A DNA stretch of 64,000 nt. It comes from Candidatus Saccharimonadota bacterium. GTDB taxonomy: Bacteria; Patescibacteriota; Saccharimonadia; Saccharimonadales; DTSZ01. Numbering within the stretch: position 1 is the first letter of the stretch; each line of letters begins with the position of its first letter. Location: contig DTSZ01000001.1 in assembly GCA_012965045.1 (NCBI GenBank), positions 348,937 through 412,936 on the forward strand, given 5' to 3'. Shown piece by piece: positions 3,428 to 51,354 of the stretch. The notes beneath the pieces were generated by a model. It was not told where the DNA came from. It saw nothing but the letters and a program-made list of their open reading frames with translations, and did not search any database. The position numbers were made by a program, and so were the translations under genes.

Positions 3428-4695
3428 TACCCGTGTATTCCATCATGGCTATGGTCGGGCTTTAAGGTTTCTGGTGCAACCATGTCATTGTCGAGTTGAA
3501 CGAGCACCTGATTTTTTAGAACATCTTCCCCCATGTAGCGAGAGAATATTTCATTCCAAAGCGATTCGCGCATATGGTAGACATAACGGTCGCCATAGCC
3601 TATTCCATTTGAGTAACCAAAAGAAACATCTGTAAGATTGAACGAATTTGGTTTATTGTCGTCCTCAAACCGTGCCACATAGTCCATATCGTGCCAAAAT
3701 TCCATTTCTGGGTCCAAGCTGTATAAAAGTTCTTCGGCTTTGCGCCAGTGCAAGTCCTCAGGGTGAAGATGTGGCTGAAACGCTTCTGGGTGACTTTCGT
3801 CTTTTAATTTACCAAAATAGCGCTGAATTACTCGCCAGTGAATATTTTGGCCTGCCATTATTGCCGCATTACTTGGGTCGGCAATAAGTGTGTCTACAAT
3901 TTCTTCGCCAAAATTAGGTTTAACCTGGCTTAATTTGAAAAAGCTTGAATACAGACGAATCTCGTTAATGTAGTGGTAGAGCAACGGCAGAGTTTTTAGA
4001 GTTATGCCGCGCATTTTTTCTTGTTTCATTGGTACTACAATAATTGTGCCAAGCTCTTTGGTGTGCGTTACATTATGCAATTTTTTCTTAGTGAACTTTT
4101 CTGCCATGCCTGCCCACTTGTCGTGGTCCATAATCACAATATTAATTTCGCGTTCTTCAAAATCACTTGGGGTAATCTTTTTAAATAGCTCGTTGTAATC
4201 ATTAAGCCAATCACCGCCTTCGCTAAAACGAAGAGCGCTATAAATTTCGTCGAAATTTTCTTGCTTAAACATGCTGTCAATACTGCGGTAATTTAAATGC
4301 TCCATCATTTTTTTCGGTGGCATTTCTCGTAACATATCTTTGGCGACCGATCGTTTGAGCGCCCAGCAGGTTTTAAGGGTGTCTGTTTCTTCAGCGGTTT
4401 TAACTGCAGCATCTACCACTCCGCGAATATCGCTGTGATCTTTGGCACCAATGATTTTAGTAACACGTTCATTATCTTGCTCGACGCGGTTCATTAAAGC
4501 AGCGTAAAGCTCCGGTCCTGTGGTGTCGTCAGGGTCAAGCCCTAAGGTCCGTAGGGCAATCCGCACCTTCTCGTCGATCTCGGCAATCAACCGCACATCA
4601 ACTGATTTTTCACCACTGGTTTTCTCAAGTTGCTTTAAAGCATGACTAAATAGTGGTTCTTCCGCATCTAAAAGTCGTGATAATTTTCGTGCCAT
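3427..4695 (-). CDS. conserved-looking hypothetical protein (422 aa), no family recognised
   Basis: Long uninterrupted ORF with normal amino-acid composition, translationally coupled (TAATG) to the LOG-like gene downstream. I recognise no catalytic motif. Confidence 0.7.
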   Translation of the reverse strand: MARKLSRLLDAEEPLFSHALKQLEKTSGEKSVDVRLIAEIDEKVRIALRTLGLDPDDTTGPELYAALMNRVEQDNERVTKIIGAKDHSDIRGVVDAAVKTAEETDTLKTCWALKRSVAKDMLREMPPKKMMEHLNYRSIDSMFKQENFDEIYSALRFSEGGDWLNDYNELFKKITPSDFEEREINIVIMDHDKWAGMAEKFTKKKLHNVTHTKELGTIIVVPMKQEKMRGITLKTLPLLYHYINEIRLYSSFFKLSQVKPNFGEEIVDTLIADPSNAAIMAGQNIHWRVIQRYFGKLKDESHPEAFQPHLHPEDLHWRKAEELLYSLDPEMEFWHDMDYVARFEDDNKPNSFNLTDVSFGYSNGIGYGDRYVYHMRESLWNEIFSRYMGEDVLKNQVLVQLDNDMVAPETLKPDHSHDGIHG

Positions 4696-4743
4696 GTTTG
4701 TTTCTCTTTTACTAACAAAACAATAACATTTTTTTGCTTATGC

Positions 4744-5706
4744 TTAAAGGGCTGATACGTCCAATGGCATGTCGTGGATATTCGCAGAATCTGTAAGAAT
4801 TCCTTTTTTAGCTCCAATATGCTGAATCACAGATGTTGAGTTAGCTGAACCGCGGGTAATAGCTTCTTCTATTGAATGGCCTTTGATCAAAGCTGCCGTC
4901 ATGCCGCTGCAAAAAGCGTCCCCTGCCCCTGTTCTATCAACAGCTTTTACATCTTCGTACATGCCAGCTTTTACAAATTTCTTGCCGTCGGTTGCATACG
5001 AACCATTAGGGCCGTCAGTTAAAATAACGTACTTAACGTAGCCAGCGATGGACCGCAATATAACCCTTGGTTTATCGCTTTTTACTAGCATCTGCCATTC
5101 TTCTTTATTCAGACTGATAAGATCAAGCTTAGGTAGCAATTTTTTTAAGATACCGACATGCTTTAATTCACCCTTACCTGGGTTAATCGCTATCTTAATT
5201 CCTTTTTTATGTGCTGTATTAACCAAGTATTCCAAGACCTCCATATTGCCAGCTAAACTACTAATATAGAGCCATTTTGCATTTAAATCAGACGGTCTAA
5301 AGTTTTCTTTTCGGTAGTGCGTTGAAGCGCCGCGGTACGTTAAAATTGTTCGCTCGCCGTTTGGCGCAAGTAATAAAACCGAATAACCAGTTGAATATTT
5401 TCTAGAGTAGGTTAAATGAGAAATATCAACACCTTCAGAAACTAGTCCTGTTTTAACTGCCGCGCCTGCTGGGTCGCTCGCAATTTTCCCCATAAAACAG
5501 CTGCTTAAGCCATTTCGCGCAAAGGTTACGGCCGCATTCGTGGCTCCGCCTCCTGTTGAAAATGTAATCCCGTCCACATCTAGTTTAGAGCCGAGAGGAA
5601 ATTCAGCTACCCAGTTATTGCCTTCTTTTTGTGGAGCTAAGACCTTGCCTGATAAAAACACGTCCTGTACTGCAGCACCTACACTTACAACATCAAATTG
5701 TTTCAT
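4744..5706 (-). CDS. PfkB-family carbohydrate/nucleoside kinase (ribokinase-like)
   Basis: 320 aa with PfkB signatures GGGATNAAVTFARNG (N-terminal) and DRTGAGDAFCSG (C-terminal ATP/anion-hole motif). Confidence 0.85.
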   Translation of the reverse strand: MKQFDVVSVGAAVQDVFLSGKVLAPQKEGNNWVAEFPLGSKLDVDGITFSTGGGATNAAVTFARNGLSSCFMGKIASDPAGAAVKTGLVSEGVDISHLTYSRKYSTGYSVLLLAPNGERTILTYRGASTHYRKENFRPSDLNAKWLYISSLAGNMEVLEYLVNTAHKKGIKIAINPGKGELKHVGILKKLLPKLDLISLNKEEWQMLVKSDKPRVILRSIAGYVKYVILTDGPNGSYATDGKKFVKAGMYEDVKAVDRTGAGDAFCSGMTAALIKGHSIEEAITRGSANSTSVIQHIGAKKGILTDSANIHDMPLDVSAL

Positions 5707-5799
5707 TTTATCAATCCACCCTGTTTTTTATTACTCTTATGCTTGCATAATTTTAAATAATTAACAATAATATCTTTACTTTGGTCTTTAACAATACAT

Positions 5800-6545
5800 A
5801 GAAGATGGTCTAGGTAGAGCTGACGAGTCGTCGGTTGCATCTAGATTATCTTCTTAACCTGGTGAACTATTCTGTTGCCGCAGAATGAGACGTCATTAGT
5901 TTGATGGCTCCGACTCTTGGCACGCAGAGTTGTAGTTCACCTTTGCTGCGGAATAGATACCAACCACAAATGATCAAGATGGTCAGAGGTTGTGCATTCT
6001 ACCTGTTTGACGCTAGGATTTCGGGTCAACACAGGACGATGAGACCGTCTCATCCCGCAGCTTAAATTTGGTGATTGGCATTCTGCCAGAAAACAGCAAC
6101 CCCTCACGTGCTGCACTCTCAGCACGCGCTGTTTTTGACTGAATCATGCGTAACCGCACGATTTGGCGTCACCCGGCTGGACTCAGCGAACAGATTTAGC
6201 ATCTCCCCCCCATGCTTCTTCTGTGCTGAGTTCAGCTAAACGTCTGGACCAGCTCGGCCACCCACCCCCTCTACCCGGGTTGGCCCAGACGATCGTCCTC
6301 CAGGGCATACGTTGATGTCGTCGCACATCGTGCCGCACTCGTACTGTCCTGGAGGACGACCAAACTTCCCACGGGGAGTCAGCTACCGCCGAGAGGGGGC
6401 CCTCGCGCGCTGCTGACTCCCCGCTGGGATGCAAAGATCAAGGAAATTTGGGGAAGAGGCCGCGGTTTTTTGGCAGCGAGAGGTTTTGAATGGCATTTGC
6501 TATTCAATCAAGATATCCACTCCCCTAAGACCACAAAAACCGCCG
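5800..6545 (-). ncRNA. candidate large structured RNA, family unknown
   Basis: 906-bp gap between pfkB and fba in a window where gaps are usually under 100 bp. Its only ORFs (62 and 83 aa) translate to Arg/Trp-rich nonsense. Local GC is high (42 of 60 nt in 6241-6300). At least 9 helices of 7-13 bp are present. Three helices gain a G-U pair only when read on the minus strand. Boundaries are approximate. Confidence 0.4.
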
Positions 6546-6612
6546 CCTATAACACTCAGTAGATACCAGTTGTAAGCTTAAAAATTGACTTTACAATTGT
6601 GATTTATAGCAA

Positions 6613-7524
6613 CTAACCTGCTTTATTAGTTGTGCCAAACAATTCTATTTTTTCTTCTACAACTTTTTGGACCGCTTCAATAACGGGGCCCATTAACTTT
6701 ACAACCGCATACTGATCTGGGTTGTCTTTTAATTGTTGTTCTAACGTAGTTCTAAACGCATAACGCATATCAGAATTTATATTAACTTTGCTGATACCGT
6801 TGCTTACAGCAGCTTGGTAATAGTGACCAGGTGTACCCGAACCGCCATGTAAACTTAAAAAAGCATCTTCTGGTATTGCGGCTTTAATTTGTTTTAAAAG
6901 TTCAATGTCCAGTTTTTTAGGTACTGGGTACTTACCGTGCAAGTTTCCAATGGCTACTGCAAAGGTGTCAATGCCTGTTGCTTCTATAAACTCTTTTGTG
7001 CCTTGGGGTGTGCTGAATGTCTTTCTGATTTCTTCATAGTCAATGTCTTCGTCGTGCACGTTGCTGCTGCCGCCAAAATAGTGCGGTTCACTTTCAACAA
7101 TTGCGCCACTTACGGTGGCTGCGTAGTCAACGACCTCTTTAGTTTTAGCAATAATTTCTTCTTCACTAGCATCTTTATTGGCCTGTGATATATCGATATG
7201 AATAAACTCATATCCTTCATCTATTGCGGCTTTTGCAGCTTCTACTTCTGGCGAGTGGTCAAGATTAATATATAACTCTACTCCGTACTGTTCGCGGTAA
7301 TTGTCTACCATGTCGCGAATATTCTTAAGGCCCATGGCTTTAACTTCACCAGCGCTCACTTCTACCATGCCAGGTGCATTTTTGGCAGCCAATGCCTTAC
7401 AGGCCGCAATTAAAGTTTCTTGATTATCGATATTAAAAGCACCGAGTGCGTAGCCTTCTCGTTTTGCTTTTGCATATGCAGTCCGTGCCTGTTCGCATCT
7501 TTTTTTACTGTCCCATTGTGCCAT
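6613..7524 (-). CDS. fba: class II fructose-bisphosphate aldolase
   Basis: 303 aa. Motifs YINLDHS, FIHIDIS and SLHGGSGTP are typical of class II (metal-dependent) ketose-bisphosphate aldolases. Confidence 0.9.
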   Translation of the reverse strand: MAQWDSKKRCEQARTAYAKAKREGYALGAFNIDNQETLIAACKALAAKNAPGMVEVSAGEVKAMGLKNIRDMVDNYREQYGVELYINLDHSPEVEAAKAAIDEGYEFIHIDISQANKDASEEEIIAKTKEVVDYAATVSGAIVESEPHYFGGSSNVHDEDIDYEEIRKTFSTPQGTKEFIEATGIDTFAVAIGNLHGKYPVPKKLDIELLKQIKAAIPEDAFLSLHGGSGTPGHYYQAAVSNGISKVNINSDMRYAFRTTLEQQLKDNPDQYAVVKLMGPVIEAVQKVVEEKIELFGTTNKAG

Positions 7525-8781: not shown

Positions 8782-9750
8782 GAAGCCAGTGATTTGCTTA
8801 GCCATTTGCTTGCCTGTTAAACCAAAGTGCTCCAGCAATTCTTGTGGTTTGCCAGACTGTCCATAGCTGTCTCTAACTCCAATTCTCATTGCTGGCACTG
8901 GATTGTGCTCGCTTAAAAATTCAATAACTGCGCTGCCAAAACCAGCAGCAATCTGAGCTTCTTCAGCGGTTACCAGTTTGCCAGTTTTATTCACACTGGC
9001 TAAAATTGTTGCTCCGTCCAGTGGTTTTACGACAGGTACGTGAACTACCTCTGCATCAATGCCTTTTTTAGCTAGTAAGTCTGCGGCAACCAGTAGTTGA
9101 TAGGTCATAGTGCCGGTACCTGCCAAGGTAATATCTGTGCCCTTTCGTAGTACGTGCGCTCTGTGCAAATCAAATGGTGAATCATTGGTTGTAAATACTG
9201 GAGTAGCTTCACGGGCTAAGCGAATGTAAGCCGGGTTTTCAATGTCTTCAGCCAGTGCTAGTGTGGCTTTTTCTGCCTCGACAGAGTCGCCAGGACAAAC
9301 CACCACCATATGCGGCAACACACGCATGAGCGCAATGTCTTCCAGCATTTGGTGCGTTGCGCCATCTGGCCCTACAGACACACCAGCATGTGAACCAACA
9401 ATCCGTACAGGCAACTCACCCATGCAAATACTGGTTCTAATTTGGTCAAAGCTTCTGCCAGGGTGAAAGGCTGCATAACTAGAACTAAACGGAATCCTGC
9501 CAGCGATAGCCAGACCAGCCGAAACGCTGGCAAGGTTTTGTTCGGCAATACCAATTTCTACGAATCGATCAGGAAATGCATCGCGAAAACCATTCATTTT
9601 TGTTGAATCAGTTAAATCTGCGCATAACGCTACAACCCGTTCGTCTTGTTGGCCAGCTTTGACTAATCCTCGGCCAAATCCACTGCGAATCGGCTCTTGC
9701 TTACAGGATTTTTTAAACATATCTGGGTCTAAATGTTTTGCGTAGCTCAT
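8773..9750 (-). CDS. tkt: transketolase, C-terminal subunit (pyrimidine-binding plus C-terminal domains)
   Basis: 325 aa. Motifs FVEIGIAEQN, HAGVSVGPDGATHQ and the C-terminal domain are present. The start overlaps the stop of the N-terminal subunit gene (ATGA at 9747-9750). This is the split-transketolase arrangement. Confidence 0.9.
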   Translation of the reverse strand: MSYAKHLDPDMFKKSCKQEPIRSGFGRGLVKAGQQDERVVALCADLTDSTKMNGFRDAFPDRFVEIGIAEQNLASVSAGLAIAGRIPFSSSYAAFHPGRSFDQIRTSICMGELPVRIVGSHAGVSVGPDGATHQMLEDIALMRVLPHMVVVCPGDSVEAEKATLALAEDIENPAYIRLAREATPVFTTNDSPFDLHRAHVLRKGTDITLAGTGTMTYQLLVAADLLAKKGIDAEVVHVPVVKPLDGATILASVNKTGKLVTAEEAQIAAGFGSAVIEFLSEHNPVPAMRIGVRDSYGQSGKPQELLEHFGLTGKQMAKQITGFLN

Positions 9751-10613
9751 TTATGTTCACCTTCAATTTTACCGTTCATGCTCCGTAGTTGGTTTAAAGC
9801 TTCTTTTGCAGCACTTTGAGCCTTCGGCCCTTTTTCTGAGTCAACAAAATACCCATGCCAATGATGATCAAACTGCATAAAGTCTACCCCTTTACCTGGA
9901 ATGGTATGGGCTAGCACTACAACCGGCTTTTCGACTATAGCTTTTGCCATATTGCAAGCCGCGACAATGTCTTCAATATTGTGGCCATCGACTTCTAGTA
10001 CATGCCAACCAAACGCCTGCCACTTGGCTTTTAAATCTTCAAGTGGCATAACTTCTTCGGTTAGTCCGTCGATTTGAATGTTGTTACGGTCAACTATTAC
10101 CGTAAGGTTATATAAGTGGTATTTTGCAGCCAGCATAATGCCTTCCCAAATCACCCCTTCGTTAAGCTCGCCGTCACCTGTTAAGCAATAAACATACCGG
10201 CCGTGTTCACCACGGAGCTTTTGATCAAGGGCGAAGCCAACAGCCTGTCCAAGGCCATTTCCAAGCGGACCGCTGGTGTTTTCAATGCCAGGTAGTTTGG
10301 TGCGTTCTGGGTGCCCTTGCAAACGACTACCAAATTTACGCAGTGTTGCGAGTTCTTTTTTAGGAAAATAACCTGCGTGTGCCAAAGTCGTATACAAAAC
10401 TGGTGCAATGTGACCGTTAGACAGAAATACTGCGTCACGCTCAGCCCAATCAGGGTCTTTAGGATTGTGGTTTAAAACCTCAAAATAAAGAGCCGTAAAA
10501 ACATCGGCCATGCCTAATGGGCCCGCCACGTGTCCACTACCGGCTTCCTCGAGCATTTTTATGATATCTTGACGAATAGCATTCGCCTTTTTTTCAAGCT
10601 GTTTTGTTGTCAC
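9747..10613 (-). CDS. tkt: transketolase, N-terminal subunit (thiamine-diphosphate-binding domain)
   Basis: 288 aa with SGHVAGPLGMADV, LSNGH and TGDGELNEG (GDG-x-NEG ThDP/metal motif). Confidence 0.9.
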   Translation of the reverse strand: MTTKQLEKKANAIRQDIIKMLEEAGSGHVAGPLGMADVFTALYFEVLNHNPKDPDWAERDAVFLSNGHIAPVLYTTLAHAGYFPKKELATLRKFGSRLQGHPERTKLPGIENTSGPLGNGLGQAVGFALDQKLRGEHGRYVYCLTGDGELNEGVIWEGIMLAAKYHLYNLTVIVDRNNIQIDGLTEEVMPLEDLKAKWQAFGWHVLEVDGHNIEDIVAACNMAKAIVEKPVVVLAHTIPGKGVDFMQFDHHWHGYFVDSEKGPKAQSAAKEALNQLRSMNGKIEGEHK

Positions 10614-25864: not shown

Positions 25865-27730
25865 TTACCAACCGCCGCCGCCACCGCCGCCTCCGCCGCC
25901 ACCAGAAAAGCCCCCGCTGAATCCACTACCACCACTGGCCCCACTATTGCTTGGTGGCGTAAACGCATTTTGAGCTGAACTCGATAAATTATTTAAACTG
26001 TCAGCCAATAACAGCGAATTAAAGGTACGGGCGTTGGAGTTGTACCAGTCGGGTGGTTGTTGATACAGGTCCTTAAACTGCTCACTCCAGCTTTCAGTCA
26101 AACCAAACAACATGGCGTATGGTAATAGTTCTTCGTAAATGCGCAGTTTAAACTCATTGCTGGAAACTTGTTCGCTGCCATATTTTGAGCCCTCAACACC
26201 TTGGTGAAACTCTAACCTGTCCGCCTCAGCAAGTTTTATGTACTCTTCGAGCCCTTTAATGTGGTCAAAAGCGGCGCTGCCTTTTGAAGTACGAGCAGGC
26301 ATGGCATTTGTCCAAAACAACATAAGTACTCCAGCAGCTATAAATCCAAACCCCACGCCGGGCAAAATAAAAAAGAACGGGACGCTCAGTAATGCCATCA
26401 AAATCGACCGGCCTACCCAGCTGGCTTTTGCTTTGTCGGGTGCAACCTTAAAATACCCTTCTTTAGCAAGCCGTGTTGGCGTATTTTTTATAAGTTTTTG
26501 CGCTCCGGTATACAGTTTGTTTTTTTGTGTATCGAGCTGGATAACTTCGCCAATAGTAGCGCTACCCGCGGCGGTCGCCTGTAAAGCACTTTCCCGCACT
26601 CCCTTAAGGTCGCCCTTAAATAATGATGTTAAGACTTTTTTGGGGTCGAATTCTACCGATTCGAATAATATCGATACTATTTCTTGTAAATCATGTGGTG
26701 CTGAACTTGGGTCTTTGGTTAATTCTAGACTTAGTTCGTGCTTGTCTTTGCGTAGTCGCCGCTTTGTTTCTTTGTCGATGATTTTTATATAGCCAAGAGT
26801 TGCGAGCTGCAATATGCCGGCTGAAATTCCAGCCGTTGTTAGCTTCTCTTTTAAAATCACTTCACTGCTAACTACATTGAGTCCTGCTGGTGGTACGTAT
26901 TGCGGGGTTGTGTAACCACGCTTATTGTCATCTCGACCATGCTTTTTCCAACGACGGTAGCTGTAGCCCAGCGCTAGAATCGGAACCCCAACAAAACCAG
27001 CCGCGTTTAATAGTGCTTTGCGCTTAATCCACGGGTCGGCAAAAAATTCACCTTTTTCGAAGCCCAGTACAACCGAAGCATTTTCGTACGCTAACAGGTT
27101 GTTTGCAGTTGCAGTAACAGTTATTCCTGCCGAAGACTCATCTCTGGTGATCGTGCAGTCAGCCGCTGAAGACCCAAAACTTCCACTAAAACATTCTTGC
27201 CTGTCCTGCAGAGATTCAGCAATTGATGCTGGTATATGAAACCTCGCCTCTAAACTGCCAAATGATTGACTCCATCCGGTGCCGTTAGTGTCCCAAAATA
27301 GCTCATCGTGATCATCGAAAAAACTAATAACGTTATCGACCGAGTATTCGATTACATAGGTCTGTTGCCCGTGCACAAAAACGTTAGCATCGCCGATTCG
27401 CACAATAAGAAAGTCGCCAGACGTATAGGTTGTATAGTTCCACGGCTGGCCGTTGCCATCAGTAACCGATGTGATGTCGATATTAACTGGTGCGTTTTTA
27501 TAGCTTTTAGGGATAGCCCGTTCAATGCCACGATTTTGATTAAAATCTGGAAAAACAGCAACTAACTCTTCTGTAATATCCAGCCTGCCCACATTCTGGT
27601 CGTCTTTAGATAAAAAGTAGTCGGCTTCAAACGATTCGAACACAAAGTTTTGGGTGTTTTGCGCCACTACTGCTTGGCCGCCAATCACCATCAAAGCTGC
27701 AACTAATAAACCAACTAGATACTTGTTCAT
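25865..27730 (-). CDS. DUF2207-family membrane protein with a poly-glycine C-terminal tail
   Basis: About 621 aa from the ATG at 27730 (MNKYLVGLLVAALMV, signal-like). The track start 27751 is less likely. It has an extracellular N-domain, TM segments, and ends SGGFSGGGGGGGGGGGW, as in DUF2207 proteins. Confidence 0.85.
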   Translation of the reverse strand: MNKYLVGLLVAALMVIGGQAVVAQNTQNFVFESFEADYFLSKDDQNVGRLDITEELVAVFPDFNQNRGIERAIPKSYKNAPVNIDITSVTDGNGQPWNYTTYTSGDFLIVRIGDANVFVHGQQTYVIEYSVDNVISFFDDHDELFWDTNGTGWSQSFGSLEARFHIPASIAESLQDRQECFSGSFGSSAADCTITRDESSAGITVTATANNLLAYENASVVLGFEKGEFFADPWIKRKALLNAAGFVGVPILALGYSYRRWKKHGRDDNKRGYTTPQYVPPAGLNVVSSEVILKEKLTTAGISAGILQLATLGYIKIIDKETKRRLRKDKHELSLELTKDPSSAPHDLQEIVSILFESVEFDPKKVLTSLFKGDLKGVRESALQATAAGSATIGEVIQLDTQKNKLYTGAQKLIKNTPTRLAKEGYFKVAPDKAKASWVGRSILMALLSVPFFFILPGVGFGFIAAGVLMLFWTNAMPARTSKGSAAFDHIKGLEEYIKLAEADRLEFHQGVEGSKYGSEQVSSNEFKLRIYEELLPYAMLFGLTESWSEQFKDLYQQPPDWYNSNARTFNSLLLADSLNNLSSSAQNAFTPPSNSGASGGSGFSGGFSGGGGGGGGGGGW

Positions 27731-27764
27731 TAACTTAATTCTACAGCCCAAATATATGTTTTGA

Positions 27765-27941
27765 CTAATTTGCTCCTAGCGCAACGTGCATGCTTGTTAA
27801 ATTTTCACCAACAACAAACTGCACAACCGCATACCAAACACCATCTTTTTGGTAAAATTTCCGCACCTGTGGCTCAATTTGCTGGGTAGTCTTTCCCGCT
27901 GCTATTTCAATTTTTGGCAATAAATCTTCGATACGCCCCAT
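27765..27941 (-). CDS. possible small protein (58 aa)
   Basis: Below the track cutoff. ATG at 27941 has a GGAGGA Shine-Dalgarno (rc of about 27948-27953). Translation is MGRIEDLLPKIEIAAGKTTQQIEPQVRKFYQKDGVWYAVVQFVVGENLTSMHVALGAN. Confidence 0.4.
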   Translation of the reverse strand: MGRIEDLLPKIEIAAGKTTQQIEPQVRKFYQKDGVWYAVVQFVVGENLTSMHVALGAN

Positions 27942-28232
27942 AGCCGATCCTCCAAAATAATTAGTTTAAAAGTTATAAATATATATTGCTTATAGGATTT
28001 TGATTTTTTGTGGTTTCGCTAAATCTTGGAGCGAAGATTTGTGTAAATAGGTTCACTCAGTGACCGTAGTATGAGTGCCTGATGTCTATAAATATACGCT
28101 TTAAGCATGTACTTGCATATTGTAGATATGACCGCCTAAAGTGTGCATAAAAAACAAATAGTTCGTGAAATTATATACAAAAAACTTCTAGTTACTATGC
28201 TTAGCTTAGTGTAATTAACCAAGAGGTATGTT

Positions 28233-28565
28233 ATGAAAAAATTTATGTTTATTTACAAAGGCCCAGCTACAGCCGCAGAAGACATGAGCCCAGAACAATC
28301 AAAATCCATTATGCAGGCCTGGTCTGACTGGATGAACGGTGTCGAAGAAAATCTAATTGATATGGGCACACCACTTGCAAATGGCCACGCTTTATTCGAC
28401 GACGGCACAGACGGAGATGGACTCGATCTTAGTGGGTACAGCATTATCCAAGCAGACTCTATGGAGCACGCCATGGAATATGCCGATAGTCACCCGTTTT
28501 TAAGTGACGAAGACGGTAAATTTTCAATCGAAATTCACGAAATGTTGCCCGTTCCAGAAATGTAG
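28233..28565 (+). CDS. YCII-related (DGPF) domain protein
   Basis: 110 aa. MKKFMFIYKG...W..W and GYSIIQADSMEHAMEYA resemble YCII-family proteins. AAGAGG Shine-Dalgarno upstream. Confidence 0.65.
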   Translation: MKKFMFIYKGPATAAEDMSPEQSKSIMQAWSDWMNGVEENLIDMGTPLANGHALFDDGTDGDGLDLSGYSIIQADSMEHAMEYADSHPFLSDEDGKFSIEIHEMLPVPEM

Positions 28566-28937
28566 CATTCATGTAGTATTAGTCTAATATGTAAATTTTT
28601 AAAGCCCTACTTTTGGATTATATATACCTACTAGTACTGTTTGTTTTTTCAAATGCAATAATACTGCTGTCTTTTTATATTTTATCTAGAATCAGAATCC
28701 ATAAGAAAAGTAATGGACTCTTTTTTATACACCTATTCGTTATTCTGGCCTGTGCTTGCGCGCTAATAATATTCTTTAGCAAATTTCTTTTAAGAATTGC
28801 TATCTAAAAACATCGTAAAAACCCAACACTATATGAATTTACCTATATAAATTACAGCCAACCAAAGAACATATTTGACCACACCGCACCGCAAGTACTA
28901 CAGTTAAAGAAATAACTTATGCTTAAAGGATGGGTGC

Positions 28938-34144: not shown

Positions 34145-34292
34145 TGAAACAGATTATTTTTACACCAGTAAATGAACGGTAACTAGAGCAATGTCACACC
34201 ACCCTCATTGAGTAACGACCAAGCATGAAAATATCTGACAATTATTTCGTTACTAAATTGACTAAAACAATGTTTTATTATAATGTCAGTCC

Positions 34293-34595
34293 ATGGAAGA
34301 CCACAGTAAGTTACCCCCATACCTAGCAATACCGCAATCAATAGATATTACTCCAGACGGTACGGTAGTAAGAGAAGATGTACTTATGCCAGAAGATGCT
34401 GACCCACAGCAAGTAGCAGAACACATGGCTTTAGATCGGGGTGTAGACCCAAGCGATATAACGGTTAAAGAACAAGGCACGTCAGCTAGAGATGCAAGTC
34501 GTGGCAATAGAGCTGGAAAAGTTTTTGGCTTCAGTAACTGGAATGGCAGCAAATGGGAACCAAGAGGCCCCAAGGGTGACCCGACCCTCAACTAA
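34293..34595 (+). CDS. hypothetical small protein (100 aa)
   Basis: The + frame has more protein-like composition than the fully overlapping minus ORF 34286-34591. No motif recognised, and it sits in an accessory-looking region. Confidence 0.3.
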   Translation: MEDHSKLPPYLAIPQSIDITPDGTVVREDVLMPEDADPQQVAEHMALDRGVDPSDITVKEQGTSARDASRGNRAGKVFGFSNWNGSKWEPRGPKGDPTLN

Positions 34596-34675
34596 TAGTA
34601 TTGGTTCCAAATTTTTGAGTTTTTTCTGTATCTACAGCCGTGCTAAACCCTCCCACTGCGCAGCGCAGTTCTACT

Positions 34676-34828
34676 CTACTCATACCTCAACGATTTAACC
34701 GGGTCTTTGCGACTAGCTTTAATTGCTGGGTATAGTCCGAAAATAACACCTGCCAGCACCGAAACAACCTGCACATTTATAATAAAATTTGCATCAACAA
34801 TCGCCACAGTTCTAGCTATAATCACATT
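34676..34828 (-). pseudogene. C-terminal remnant of an FtsX/MacB-type ABC permease
   Basis: The open frame of 50 codons ends ...VLAGVIFGLYPAIKASRKDPVKSLRYE*. That is the characteristic last TM helix plus YPAxKAxRxDPvxxLRxE tail of FtsX-family permeases. No upstream body of the gene remains (stop at 34829-34831). Confidence 0.6.
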
Positions 34829-34937
34829 TTAGTACTCATAAAAATTTAAAAAAATTGCTGAAACTATTATTTTTATTAAAAATTAGATCGATGTTCGTGA
34901 ACCGACTACAGACTATTACAGATGGCTAACTCAATAT

Positions 34938-35189
34938 CTAATTACCGCAAGTTGCTAGTGAACGTGCGAAAAATCCAGCTATTGCAGCTGCTATAAATAC
35001 GAACCACAAAACAAATTTAGCCAATATGCGTATTGATTTATGTGTAATCTTACCAGCATAACGATTAAGCTTTACCGTTATAAAGATCGCTAATGCCAGC
35101 CCACCAAAGTACAAAAGGTTTGCTCTTAAAATTTCGTCGCTATCGGGAGCAGAGCCAGTGCATAAGAAGGCGATAGTTTGATAATTCAT
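34938..35189 (-). CDS. hypothetical small membrane protein (83 aa)
   Basis: Two to three hydrophobic helices (LLYFGGLALAIFITV, FVLWFVFIAAAIAGFF). No motif recognised. Confidence 0.4.
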   Translation of the reverse strand: MNYQTIAFLCTGSAPDSDEILRANLLYFGGLALAIFITVKLNRYAGKITHKSIRILAKFVLWFVFIAAAIAGFFARSLATCGN

Positions 35190-35275
35190 TAGTTAAAGTA
35201 TACATCAGCAGTATAAAATCCCGCATATCCTTCTTTAGGCGCATGCCTCAAATAACAGCACAATCTACAGCATAG

Positions 35276-50707: not shown

Positions 50708-50727
50708 AAAGGCTCCTAATTGTTAAA

Positions 50728-50880
50728 TTACTTGTTTTTCTTGCCAAATTCTTTTTTGGTTGTAAAAGCCTTAACAGGGCTGGTTTTATTAACTCGTCGA
50801 GCTAAATCTAAAACTCTGTGACTTCTACGGTTGCCGGTTCTTCGCGGTGTTACGCGCTTTTTTGGTGTTCCACCAATCAT
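50728..50880 (-). CDS. rpmF: 50S ribosomal protein L32
   Basis: Below the track cutoff (50 aa): MIGGTPKKRVTPRRTGNRRSHRVLDLARRVNKTSPVKAFTTKKEFGKKNK. The PKKR-x-x-x-RR-x-x-RRSH pattern is the L32 N-terminal signature. Confidence 0.8.
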   Translation of the reverse strand: MIGGTPKKRVTPRRTGNRRSHRVLDLARRVNKTSPVKAFTTKKEFGKKNK

Positions 50881-50919
50881 AAACAAACACTCTCTTATCT
50901 ATTACTTAACTTCTATGGC

Positions 50920-50948
50920 ATTATAGAGTATCATCTGATCCATATCAA
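50920..50948 (-). promoter_or_regulatory. sigma70-type promoter for the rpmF-nusB operon
   Basis: On the minus strand, TTGATA (rc of 50943-50948), a 17-nt spacer, then TATAAT (rc of 50920-50925), about 40 nt upstream of the rpmF ATG. Confidence 0.55.
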
Positions 50949-50957
50949 TACTAGGTA

Positions 50958-50986
50958 TTGACTTTTTTAATATTATATTGTAATAT
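50958..50986 (+). promoter_or_regulatory. sigma70-type promoter for the divergent 51016 gene
   Basis: TTGACT (50958-50963), a 17-nt spacer, then TAATAT (50981-50986), 30 nt upstream of the ATG at 51016. Confidence 0.4.
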
Positions 50987-51015
50987 TGTTTCATTAATCA
51001 TAAGGATTATTACAC

Positions 51016-51354
51016 ATGGCAAATAACGAAATACCATACGAATCTAGAACATTACGCGAAAGACTAAAAAGTCGTACCGCTAAGGTTATTGCCGTAGTAG
51101 GTATCGCTGCTACATCATTTATGGCAGGTAATGCAATGGGTCGTGACGCTGGATACAGCACCGGTCACGAAGCTGGCCGTCAAGAAGTCTACCAACAACT
51201 GCTACCACATATGCCGGCTGTACAATCTGAAGCTCCAGCTAGCGCTGAAGGCACCGCCCTCAGCCCCGAAGAAAACGACAACGATGTTATGTCTCATGAA
51301 CACGAAATACGTACAGGTTGGGAAGCCTCTGGTGTTGAATTCCCGGACTATTAA
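51016..51354 (+). CDS. hypothetical membrane-anchored protein (112 aa)
   Basis: One TM segment (VIAVVGIAATSFMAGNAMG). No motif recognised. The stop overlaps the convergent leuS end. Confidence 0.5.
   Translation: MANNEIPYESRTLRERLKSRTAKVIAVVGIAATSFMAGNAMGRDAGYSTGHEAGRQEVYQQLLPHMPAVQSEAPASAEGTALSPEENDNDVMSHEHEIRTGWEASGVEFPDY

Follow-up and report, generated by a model that had tools for sequence, protein, structure and literature searches.

Background

The C-rich loops of RNAIII and of the UCCC-motif Rsa RNAs in Staphylococcus aureus pair with the Shine-Dalgarno region of messenger RNAs (mRNAs) (PMC2790875, PMC2837412). RNAIII is 514 nucleotides (nt) long, has 14 hairpins, is independent of Hfq and possesses its own promoter and terminator (PMC2790875, PMC2837412). 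The 6C small RNA uses C-rich loops to bind several mRNAs by G-C pairing without a chaperone (PMC6486639). OLE, GOLLD and ROOL are large RNAs which form homo-oligomers (PMC12286853). Here we describe an element in the 906-bp gap (5707-6612) between fba and a pfkB-family kinase gene on a 64-kb stretch of a Saccharibacteria (TM7, Patescibacteria) contig, which is called the window in the following. This gap most likely encodes a hairpin-rich noncoding RNA (ncRNA) of no described family, found so far in one small group of Saccharibacteria. To our knowledge, regulatory and structured RNAs of the Patescibacteria (Candidate Phyla Radiation, CPR) are almost unexplored, and a search of the literature for large ncRNAs in Saccharibacteria found none.

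The element is most fittingly regarded as a new family within a general kind already known, the bacterial hairpin-array ncRNAs with C-rich loops. Like RNAIII it is long and consists of many hairpins, several of which carry C-rich apical loops. Unlike RNAIII (RF00503) it has a size of about 0.8 kb, a long-range closing helix between the 5' and 3' parts and no similarity in sequence or to the covariance model. It contains no conserved peptide open reading frame (ORF) of the delta-haemolysin type, and its neighbours are sugar-phosphate genes instead of a quorum-sensing (agr) locus. With 6C it shares apical loops with C-runs (C7, C5 and CCCC-containing). 6C, with two hairpins and a length of roughly 60-80 nt, is small and highly conserved among Gram-positive bacteria of high GC content, whereas the element has many hairpins, low sequence conservation and belongs to another phylum; RF01066 (6C) gave no match in 5600-6700 at E <= 10. 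The comparison with 6C and RNAIII concerns how the RNA might work; the membership tests that could be run agreed in loop composition only. As in CsrB/RsmZ, a string of hairpins repeats one short apical-loop motif in variable copy number within a fast-evolving sequence, but the motif on the favoured strand is a C-run and not A(N)GGA, and no Csr/Rsm match was obtained. Finally, the element resembles OLE, GOLLD, ROOL, HEARO and raiA (PMC12286853, PMC3413148) in being a long, GC-rich and ORF-free intergenic region of more than 400 nt with many helices. Unlike these ornate RNAs it has no family-model match and no conserved core, its length and sequence turn over fast, and it is located outside a prophage and not next to tRNAs, IscB or OAP-type partners.

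Structure and conservation of the fba-pfkB element

The element is characterized by its structure, by conservation through compensatory change, by a strand bias and by C-rich loops. Compared with dinucleotide shuffles, the region 5780-6560 folds with a z-score of -11.9 on the plus strand and of -6.0 on the minus strand; for the core (6238-6432) the values are -7.8 and -7.2 (200 shuffles). The predicted fold of about 0.8 kb comprises approximately 15 hairpins (Table 1), and all helices listed in the original prediction were recovered at their coordinates and in the minimum free energy (MFE) folds. The most GC-rich 150-nt segments of the whole 64 kb are found at 6150-6400 (0.60-0.66 compared with a mean of 0.43), and an earlier count of 42 G+C in 6241-6300 agrees with our recount.

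Table 1. Flanking genes and predicted parts of the element in the window
Feature	Position	Strand	Remarks
PfkB-family kinase gene	4744-5706	minus	flank of the gap
Class II fructose-bisphosphate aldolase gene (fba)	6613-7524	minus	flank of the gap
Promoter-like TTGCAT-N17-AATAAT	5743-5771	plus	found by scan; predicted start at ~5777-5780
Conserved 15-mer TTGGTCTTTAACAAT	5781-5795	plus	likely 5' end of the RNA; only exact 15-mer common to L039
Closing helix	5779-5789/6433-6443	plus	11 pairs including 2 G.U; C5779, U5780 and the 15-mer form the 5' strand
Hairpin H1	5800-5854	plus	24 pairs, 5 G.U; -31.7 kcal on plus, -15.5 kcal on minus; full only on plus
Long hairpin domain	5861-5941	plus	helix 5861-5869/5933-5941 of the original prediction; -36.2 kcal on plus, -28.7 kcal on minus
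Multi-stem junction	5945-6061	plus	closed by 5945-5951/6055-6061; holds hairpins 6002-6035 and 6038-6054; forms on both strands
Three short hairpins (6076-6088, 6107-6126, 6139-6166)	6076-6166	plus	minus better by 7.2 kcal (domain 6063-6170)
Hairpin H2	6175-6237	plus	23 pairs; apical loop CUCCCCCCC at 6203-6211; loop of the L039 counterpart AUCCCCCUC
Hairpin H3	6241-6291	plus	apical loop CCACCCACCCCCUCUAC at 6258-6274
Hairpin H4	6293-6359	plus	12-bp base UCGUCCUCCAGG/CCUGGAGGACGA
Hairpin H5	6367-6429	plus	outer UCCCA/UGGGA, inner GGGGAGUCAGC/GCUGACUCCCC; minus better by 3.9 kcal
Closing-helix 3' strand AAAGAUCAAGG	6433-6443	plus	conserved as AAGAUYAAG
Single-stranded purine block GGGGAAGAGG	6450-6459	plus	L039 counterpart GGGAAGAGG
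3' domain H6	6458-6547	plus	long closing stem GGCCGCGGUUUUUUGG/CCACAAAAACCGCCGCC, inner hairpin 6486-6507; Y-shaped domain there in L039
A+T-rich terminal hairpin by the fba stop	6559-6607	plus	-12.2 kcal on plus, -3.7 kcal on minus; inner stem followed by UGUGAUUUAU

Conservation of the structure is seen in a related locus, L039, the nearest relative that is informative. Its fba gene is 84% identical to that of the window, while the two gaps have almost no sequence in common, and L039 was missed by nhmmer in the first search. The order of the parts is the same: the 5' 15-mer is followed by hairpins (two or more with C-run loops), H3, H4, H5, the AAGAUYAAG block, the GGGAAGAGG block, a Y-shaped or stem 3' domain and a terminator. 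The stems of both loci were compared pair by pair in a by-hand alignment. The seven distinct sequences are too few for a proper covariation statistic. Pairs changed on both sides were found in H2 (2), H3 (3), H4 (5, including a flip from CC/GG to GG/CC) and H5 (6). Altogether H2-H5 show about 16 double compensatory changes, about 4 one-sided changes of the G.U to G-C type and not a single lost pair. A covariance model made from H5 of the window and its conserved flanks (R2) found L039 at 7037-7151 on the minus strand of that locus, which is the matching strand, with 25.8 bits and an E of 8.9e-6 in an orthologous alignment. A second model of three hairpins (R1) matches L039 at E 3e-4 in a position shifted by one hairpin; arrays of generic hairpins confuse such models.

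For the assignment to known families we applied Rfam 15. At gathering score, only three transfer RNAs were found in the whole window. With relaxed filters and E <= 10, the region 5600-6700 gave four chance-level matches (14-18 bits compared with gathering scores of 45-70), and eight related loci gave no match at E <= 1. RNase P (bact a/b), tmRNA, group II intron, ROOL, GOLLD, OLE, HEARO and raiA were excluded by the missing covariance-model match, and 6C, RNAIII and Csr/Rsm were excluded as family assignments in the same way. The original proposal of a large structured RNA outside the known families is thus supported, as neither the gathering nor the permissive threshold yielded a family for the segment, and none was found for the related loci.

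The ORFs of the gap (83, 62, 54, 50 and 48 amino acids (aa); the seven longest were compared with Pfam) gave a best E of 0.039, which is outside the cut-off, and tblastx among the seven homologous gaps revealed no conserved reading frame. This is in agreement with the earlier view that these ORFs do not code for proteins, and the same searches gave no sign of a decayed gene. A phage or plasmid origin was rejected, since no similarity to phage or plasmid records was found. When the gap was compared by nhmmer with the 64-kb window, only the gap itself and its own hairpin arms were detected, i.e., there is no second copy. Repetitive extragenic palindromes (REP), bacterial interspersed mosaic elements (BIME) and miniature inverted-repeat transposable elements were rejected because of this single copy in the window and the lack of terminal inverted repeats and target-site duplications. 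Regarded as DNA, 5779-5789/6433-6443 is an inverted repeat with 9 of 11 pairs, which lies inside the element.

Distribution in Saccharibacteria

Most Saccharibacteria have abutting or overlapping fba and pfkB genes (gap of -3 to 20 nt). A search of 33 metagenome-assembled genomes (MAGs) of Saccharibacteria/Saccharimonadales from GTDB with nhmmer and blastn gave no match to the segment, and there is no gap at the site in these genomes. In a metagenome scan based on Fba, 38 loci were obtained, of which only three, all with short gaps, reached 75-77% identity. The informative homologues were traced via exact-protein look-ups of Fba matches and result, together with the window, in a set of seven distinct sequences (Table 2). 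A neighbour-joining tree of Fba places all loci with an expanded, ORF-free and hairpin-rich spacer in one clade of the Saccharimonadales. Identical Fba together with 100% identical intergenic sequence is present on hydrothermal-vent metagenome contigs (Mariner, Lau) of up to 353 kb.

Table 2. Spacer length, folding of the whole gap and apical C-rich loops in the seven homologues (antisense: antisense to fba, which is the plus strand in the window)
Locus	Spacer (nt)	MFE antisense/sense (kcal/mol)	z antisense/sense	Apical C-loops (favoured strand)
Window	906	-366.7/-337.3	-11.9/-6.0	CUCCCCCCC; CCACCCACCCCCUCUAC
L039	806	-299.9/-298.9	-18.1/-6.0	AUCCCCCUC; GAUCCCCCCA; CCCCCC(CC); UUUCACCCCCC
L041	662	-258.8/-217.0	-6.8/-4.2	UCCCCC; CCCACC
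L042	378	-134.1/-122.6	-8.2/-3.6	UUCCCCUCCU
L083	868	-364.5/-375.6	-8.9/-6.6	UCACCCC
L084	922	-373.5/-350.6	-7.2/-2.6	ACCCC
L088	694	-305.2/-279.3	-11.3/-8.1	AUCCCCCGU; UUACCCCA

To judge from these sequences, the RNA is most likely fast-evolving and restricted to the fba-pfkB locus of this one clade. On the same comparison, the element belongs to one lineage, is passed on at a fixed locus and has at times been lost or replaced, and the same site holds differing inserts in close relatives. In L082 (3892-3968) a partial spacer is present, since the NCBI MAG contig breaks off 77 nt beyond fba, where the Y-shaped terminal domain has just begun. The GC-rich hairpin array might have interrupted the assembly at this point, and the element would then be under-represented in MAGs. 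In L040, a 1.8-kb contig of the same strain as the window, an 11-nt deletion removes one arm of H5 (window 6408-6418). It was discarded as a sign that H5 is dispensable, since it is probably a misassembly: indels cluster in and upstream of fba in this contig, together with only one substitution.

Predicted transcribed strand

The folding models and the sequence comparison indicate that the plus strand of the window, i.e., the strand antisense to fba, is probably the transcribed one. The z-score is more negative on the antisense strand in all seven homologues (strand-specific shuffles), and the MFE is lower on this strand in five of them, with hardly any difference in L039 and a value 11 kcal higher in L083. 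The energy gap of H1 between the strands is caused by its five G.U pairs; the only domains which fold better on the minus strand are 6063-6170 and H5. In the closing helix of L039 the 5' strand is invariant and a C in its partner is replaced by U, so that G-C becomes G.U, which is tolerated only on the plus-equivalent strand. By the fba stop, the arrays of L041, L083, L084 and L088 end in a Y-shaped three-way junction with UUUUUCUUU after it, and that of L042 ends in a long stem domain with UUUUU after it, in each case on the antisense strand. On the sense strand, the terminal elements of these five loci have an A-run before and no U-run after them. In L039 the terminator hairpin, flanked by an A-run and a U-run, is bidirectional, and the hairpin 6559-6607 of the window is a possible weak terminator for a plus-strand RNA according to the folding model. 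In six of the seven homologues the antisense strand carries promoter-like sites upstream of the structure. The window and L039 share a conserved -35 block, GCTTG(C)ATAATTT, which lies 39-40 nt before the 15-mer; this corresponds to the geometry of a promoter and its +1 position.

The original prediction had favoured a minus-strand transcript, co-oriented with fba and pfkB. This assignment had to be reversed, as z-scores, H1, the closing helix, the terminators and the promoter geometry all favour the plus strand. The three additional pairs which form only on the minus strand are real but are outweighed by plus-only G.U pairs elsewhere, five of them in the hairpin 5800-5854. The minus-strand promoter suggested at 6546-6575 has a -10 sequence, TATAGG, without the invariant final T and was not reported by a consensus scan. 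A few hand-picked wobble pairs are no reliable basis for a strand call; in this case, z-scores of both strands across homologues changed the result.

If the minus strand were nevertheless the relevant one, the structure could be an intercistronic element in a fba-pfkB read-through mRNA, acting in cis as a REP/BIME-like stabiliser, processing site or insulator, or offering G-rich loops, similar to Shine-Dalgarno or GGA sequences, to ribosomes or a CsrA-type protein. Such an element would be co-oriented with the operon of sugar-phosphate genes, and most relatives have no U-run terminator on the sense strand after fba, which makes read-through plausible. The loops of the minus strand (GGGGGGGAG, GAGGGGGAU, AGGAGGGGAA) partly contain GGA, which occurs in several loops only on this strand that folding disfavours, and the sense fold of L083 as well as the minus fold of the GC-rich core agree with this explanation. 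However, the z-scores of all seven homologues contradict it, and on the minus strand H1 breaks, as do the closing helix and the terminal hairpin. pfkB has a promoter-like site of its own (TGnTATCATAAG in the sister lineage), so it need not depend on transcription through the hairpin array. The element is, unlike REP, present in a single copy in the window; a match to the Csr/Rsm families is missing, and a tblastn search for CsrA and Hfq in the 64-kb window, which is part of the genome, found none. We consider this explanation unlikely.

C-rich apical loops and proposed function

In the seven homologues, 16 of the 33 runs of four or more C are located in apical loops (expected: 12%, p = 3e-7), compared with 1 of 15 runs of four or more G. 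The window has few runs of at least five C or G (16 in 64 kb), and three of them, including the longest, lie in the element. AGGAG/GGAGG serves as the ribosome-binding site of genes in the window, and its complement is present in the loops as CUCC/CCUCU.

Our working model, to which we give somewhat less than an even chance, is that the plus strand from about 5778 to 6610 is an independently transcribed ncRNA of about 0.8 kb, the C-rich loops of which pair with G-rich or Shine-Dalgarno-like sites. The RNA would be transcribed from its own promoter, starting at about 5778 and ending at 6550-6610. Its 5' end (5779-5789) would pair with 6433-6443 and form a multiloop of about a dozen hairpins, followed by the 3' stem domain and a weak terminator. 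The single-stranded C-rich loops (CUCCCCCCC, CCACCCACCCCCUCUAC) resemble an anti-Shine-Dalgarno sequence and would pair with G-rich sequences, above all with the AGGAG/GGAGG ribosome-binding sites of mRNAs. In this way the RNA could work in trans as a multivalent regulator of translation or as a sponge, like RNAIII, the Rsa RNAs and 6C. A more far-reaching proposal, which we regard as doubtful, is a new class of ncRNAs of 0.4-0.9 kb in this Saccharibacteria clade, serving with their C-runs as sponge or governor of G-rich ribosome-binding sites or of a poly-C-binding protein.

Several points weigh against the proposed RNA. Its transcription, strand, ends, independence and targets are inferred. 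The complementarity of the loops to ribosome-binding sites is non-specific, since any C-run pairs with a Shine-Dalgarno sequence, and is therefore suggestive only. The putative plus-strand promoter of the window matches only 8 of 12 positions, and the terminal hairpin 6559-6607, a possible weak terminator, was not picked up by a consensus terminator scan. Over all predicted helices, G.U and A.C counts differ only weakly (89 and 66, p = 0.08), and neither strand is favoured by the folding of the GC-rich core H3-H5; for these two reasons the plus strand is probable and not certain. The homology of the sister-lineage elements (L041, L042, L083, L084, L088) rests on locus, clade and architecture, with a common GAGGACGAC and a CUCUACCC(C)GG loop as further hints. 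Model R1 reached only E 0.15-0.24 on L041 and L088, neither R1 nor R2 connected these elements convincingly, and the Y-shaped 3' domains of L041, L083, L084 and L088 aligned too poorly in MAFFT for pairs to be counted. Moreover, short spacers occur inside the clade (58 nt in L087, 106 nt in L046, 178 nt in L044 and L085), and the closest non-identical relative, L038 (Fba 87%), has a 278-aa ORF at 4543-5379 (plus) instead of the element, without a match in Pfam and without similarity to the gap of the window. It follows that the element is dispensable or often replaced.

A plus-strand RNA could also serve as a scaffold, either in a ribonucleoprotein or as a self-assembling ornate RNA, in which the C-rich loops would be sites for protein binding or for tertiary contacts, e.g., with GGGGAAGAGG. 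The length of 0.4-0.9 kb, the closed multi-helix form and the high GC content in an AT-rich genome are hallmarks which were used for OLE, GOLLD and ROOL, and the purine block at 6450-6459 could, from its sequence, pair with CCUCU of the H3 loop. Ornate RNAs, however, retain conserved cores, junction nucleotides and pseudoknots across wide phylogenetic distances, whereas here the primary sequence is gone at 84% fba identity, lengths differ by more than a factor of two and the hairpins seem independent of each other. There is no evident co-occurring partner gene, as relatives without the element have the same neighbours, and the models of OLE, GOLLD and ROOL did not match. A scaffold is thus rather improbable.

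The variation at the site could be taken for a hot spot of insertion or expansion, the hairpin-rich spacer being without function, whether transcribed or not, and composed of decaying inserts or of palindromes generated by replication errors. Gap lengths of 58, 106, 178, 378, 662, 694, 806, 868, 906 and 922 nt within the clade, the unrelated ORF in one relative and the hardly conserved primary sequence agree with it. We see only a small chance for this explanation, since the compensatory changes relative to L039, with no broken pair, are unexpected without selection on pairing and the z-scores of all homologues are strongly negative. Selection on RNA instead of DNA is indicated by the G.U pairs and the strand bias, short conserved blocks keep a fixed spacing, and repeats of the element in the window, terminal inverted repeats, target-site duplications and similarity to phages or plasmids are all missing. 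A decayed GC-rich protein gene, perhaps acquired horizontally, would account for a GC content above that of the surrounding genome and for the ORF at the site in L038, but has almost no probability, as the longest ORF of 83 aa has no Pfam match, no frame is conserved among the seven gaps, the L038 protein is dissimilar to the gap and the substitutions compensate helices instead of following codons.

Genomic context and further observations

The gap is located in a run of sugar-phosphate genes (gap, rpiB, rpe, split tkt, fba, pfkB). The proposed plus-strand RNA would be oriented antisense to fba and pfkB and lies between both genes without overlapping them. A TAAAAT/TATAAT-like, promoter-like site is found directly upstream of pfkB in the window and in L039. 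In the sister lineage TGnTATCATAAG, which resembles an extended -10 motif, is conserved 5-12 nt before the pfkB start; copies are located at about 6530-6553 in L041 and 6268-6287 in L042, and also just upstream of pfkB in L083 and L088. From the sequence, this position suggests that pfkB has its own promoter and an mRNA whose leader is very short or absent.

The gap had been described as by far the longest non-coding stretch of the window. The gap itself is real, while "by far" holds only if the plausible-looking ORFs of about 100-110 aa in two other stretches of 1.1-1.2 kb (27752-28937 and 34145-35275) are genes. ORFs of at least 120 aa are absent from these two and from 50708-51350, and none of the three shows a GC rise like that at 6150-6400. 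They contain small, real-looking ORFs of 52-112 aa, at 28233-28565, 34293-34595 and 51016-51354 (all plus) and at 50728-50886 (minus), the last one very basic and 52 aa long. At 25865-27751 (minus) a predicted membrane protein of 628 aa is encoded, which has an unusual tail with 11 glycines and then a tryptophan at its end.

Two observations were made in related genomes. In L008, a GTDB relative, 1.07 kb (9255-10327) are free of ORFs of at least 80 aa and have a GC content of 0.56 compared with 0.49; this may be another RNA gene. In L067 (4370-4711) and L049 (4385-4842), two more distant relatives outside the clade, a hairpin followed by a U-run is located antisense to fba right after its stop. 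Convergent transcription into the 3' end of fba may be common in Saccharibacteria.

Significance

Saccharibacteria are ultra-small, host-dependent bacteria with genomes of about 1 Mb, for which devoting about 0.8 kb to one RNA gene is a considerable cost. The fast turnover of the sequence, together with the kept pairing, provides a natural data set for the evolution of hairpin-array RNAs. Should transcription take place as proposed, the RNA would be a new entry among the few families of bacterial ncRNAs longer than 400 nt. Recognition of mRNAs by C-rich loops would then extend from Firmicutes and Actinobacteria to the CPR. On the more far-reaching and doubtful proposal of a sponge or governor, the element would be a global knob of post-transcriptional control in a reduced genome with few protein regulators.

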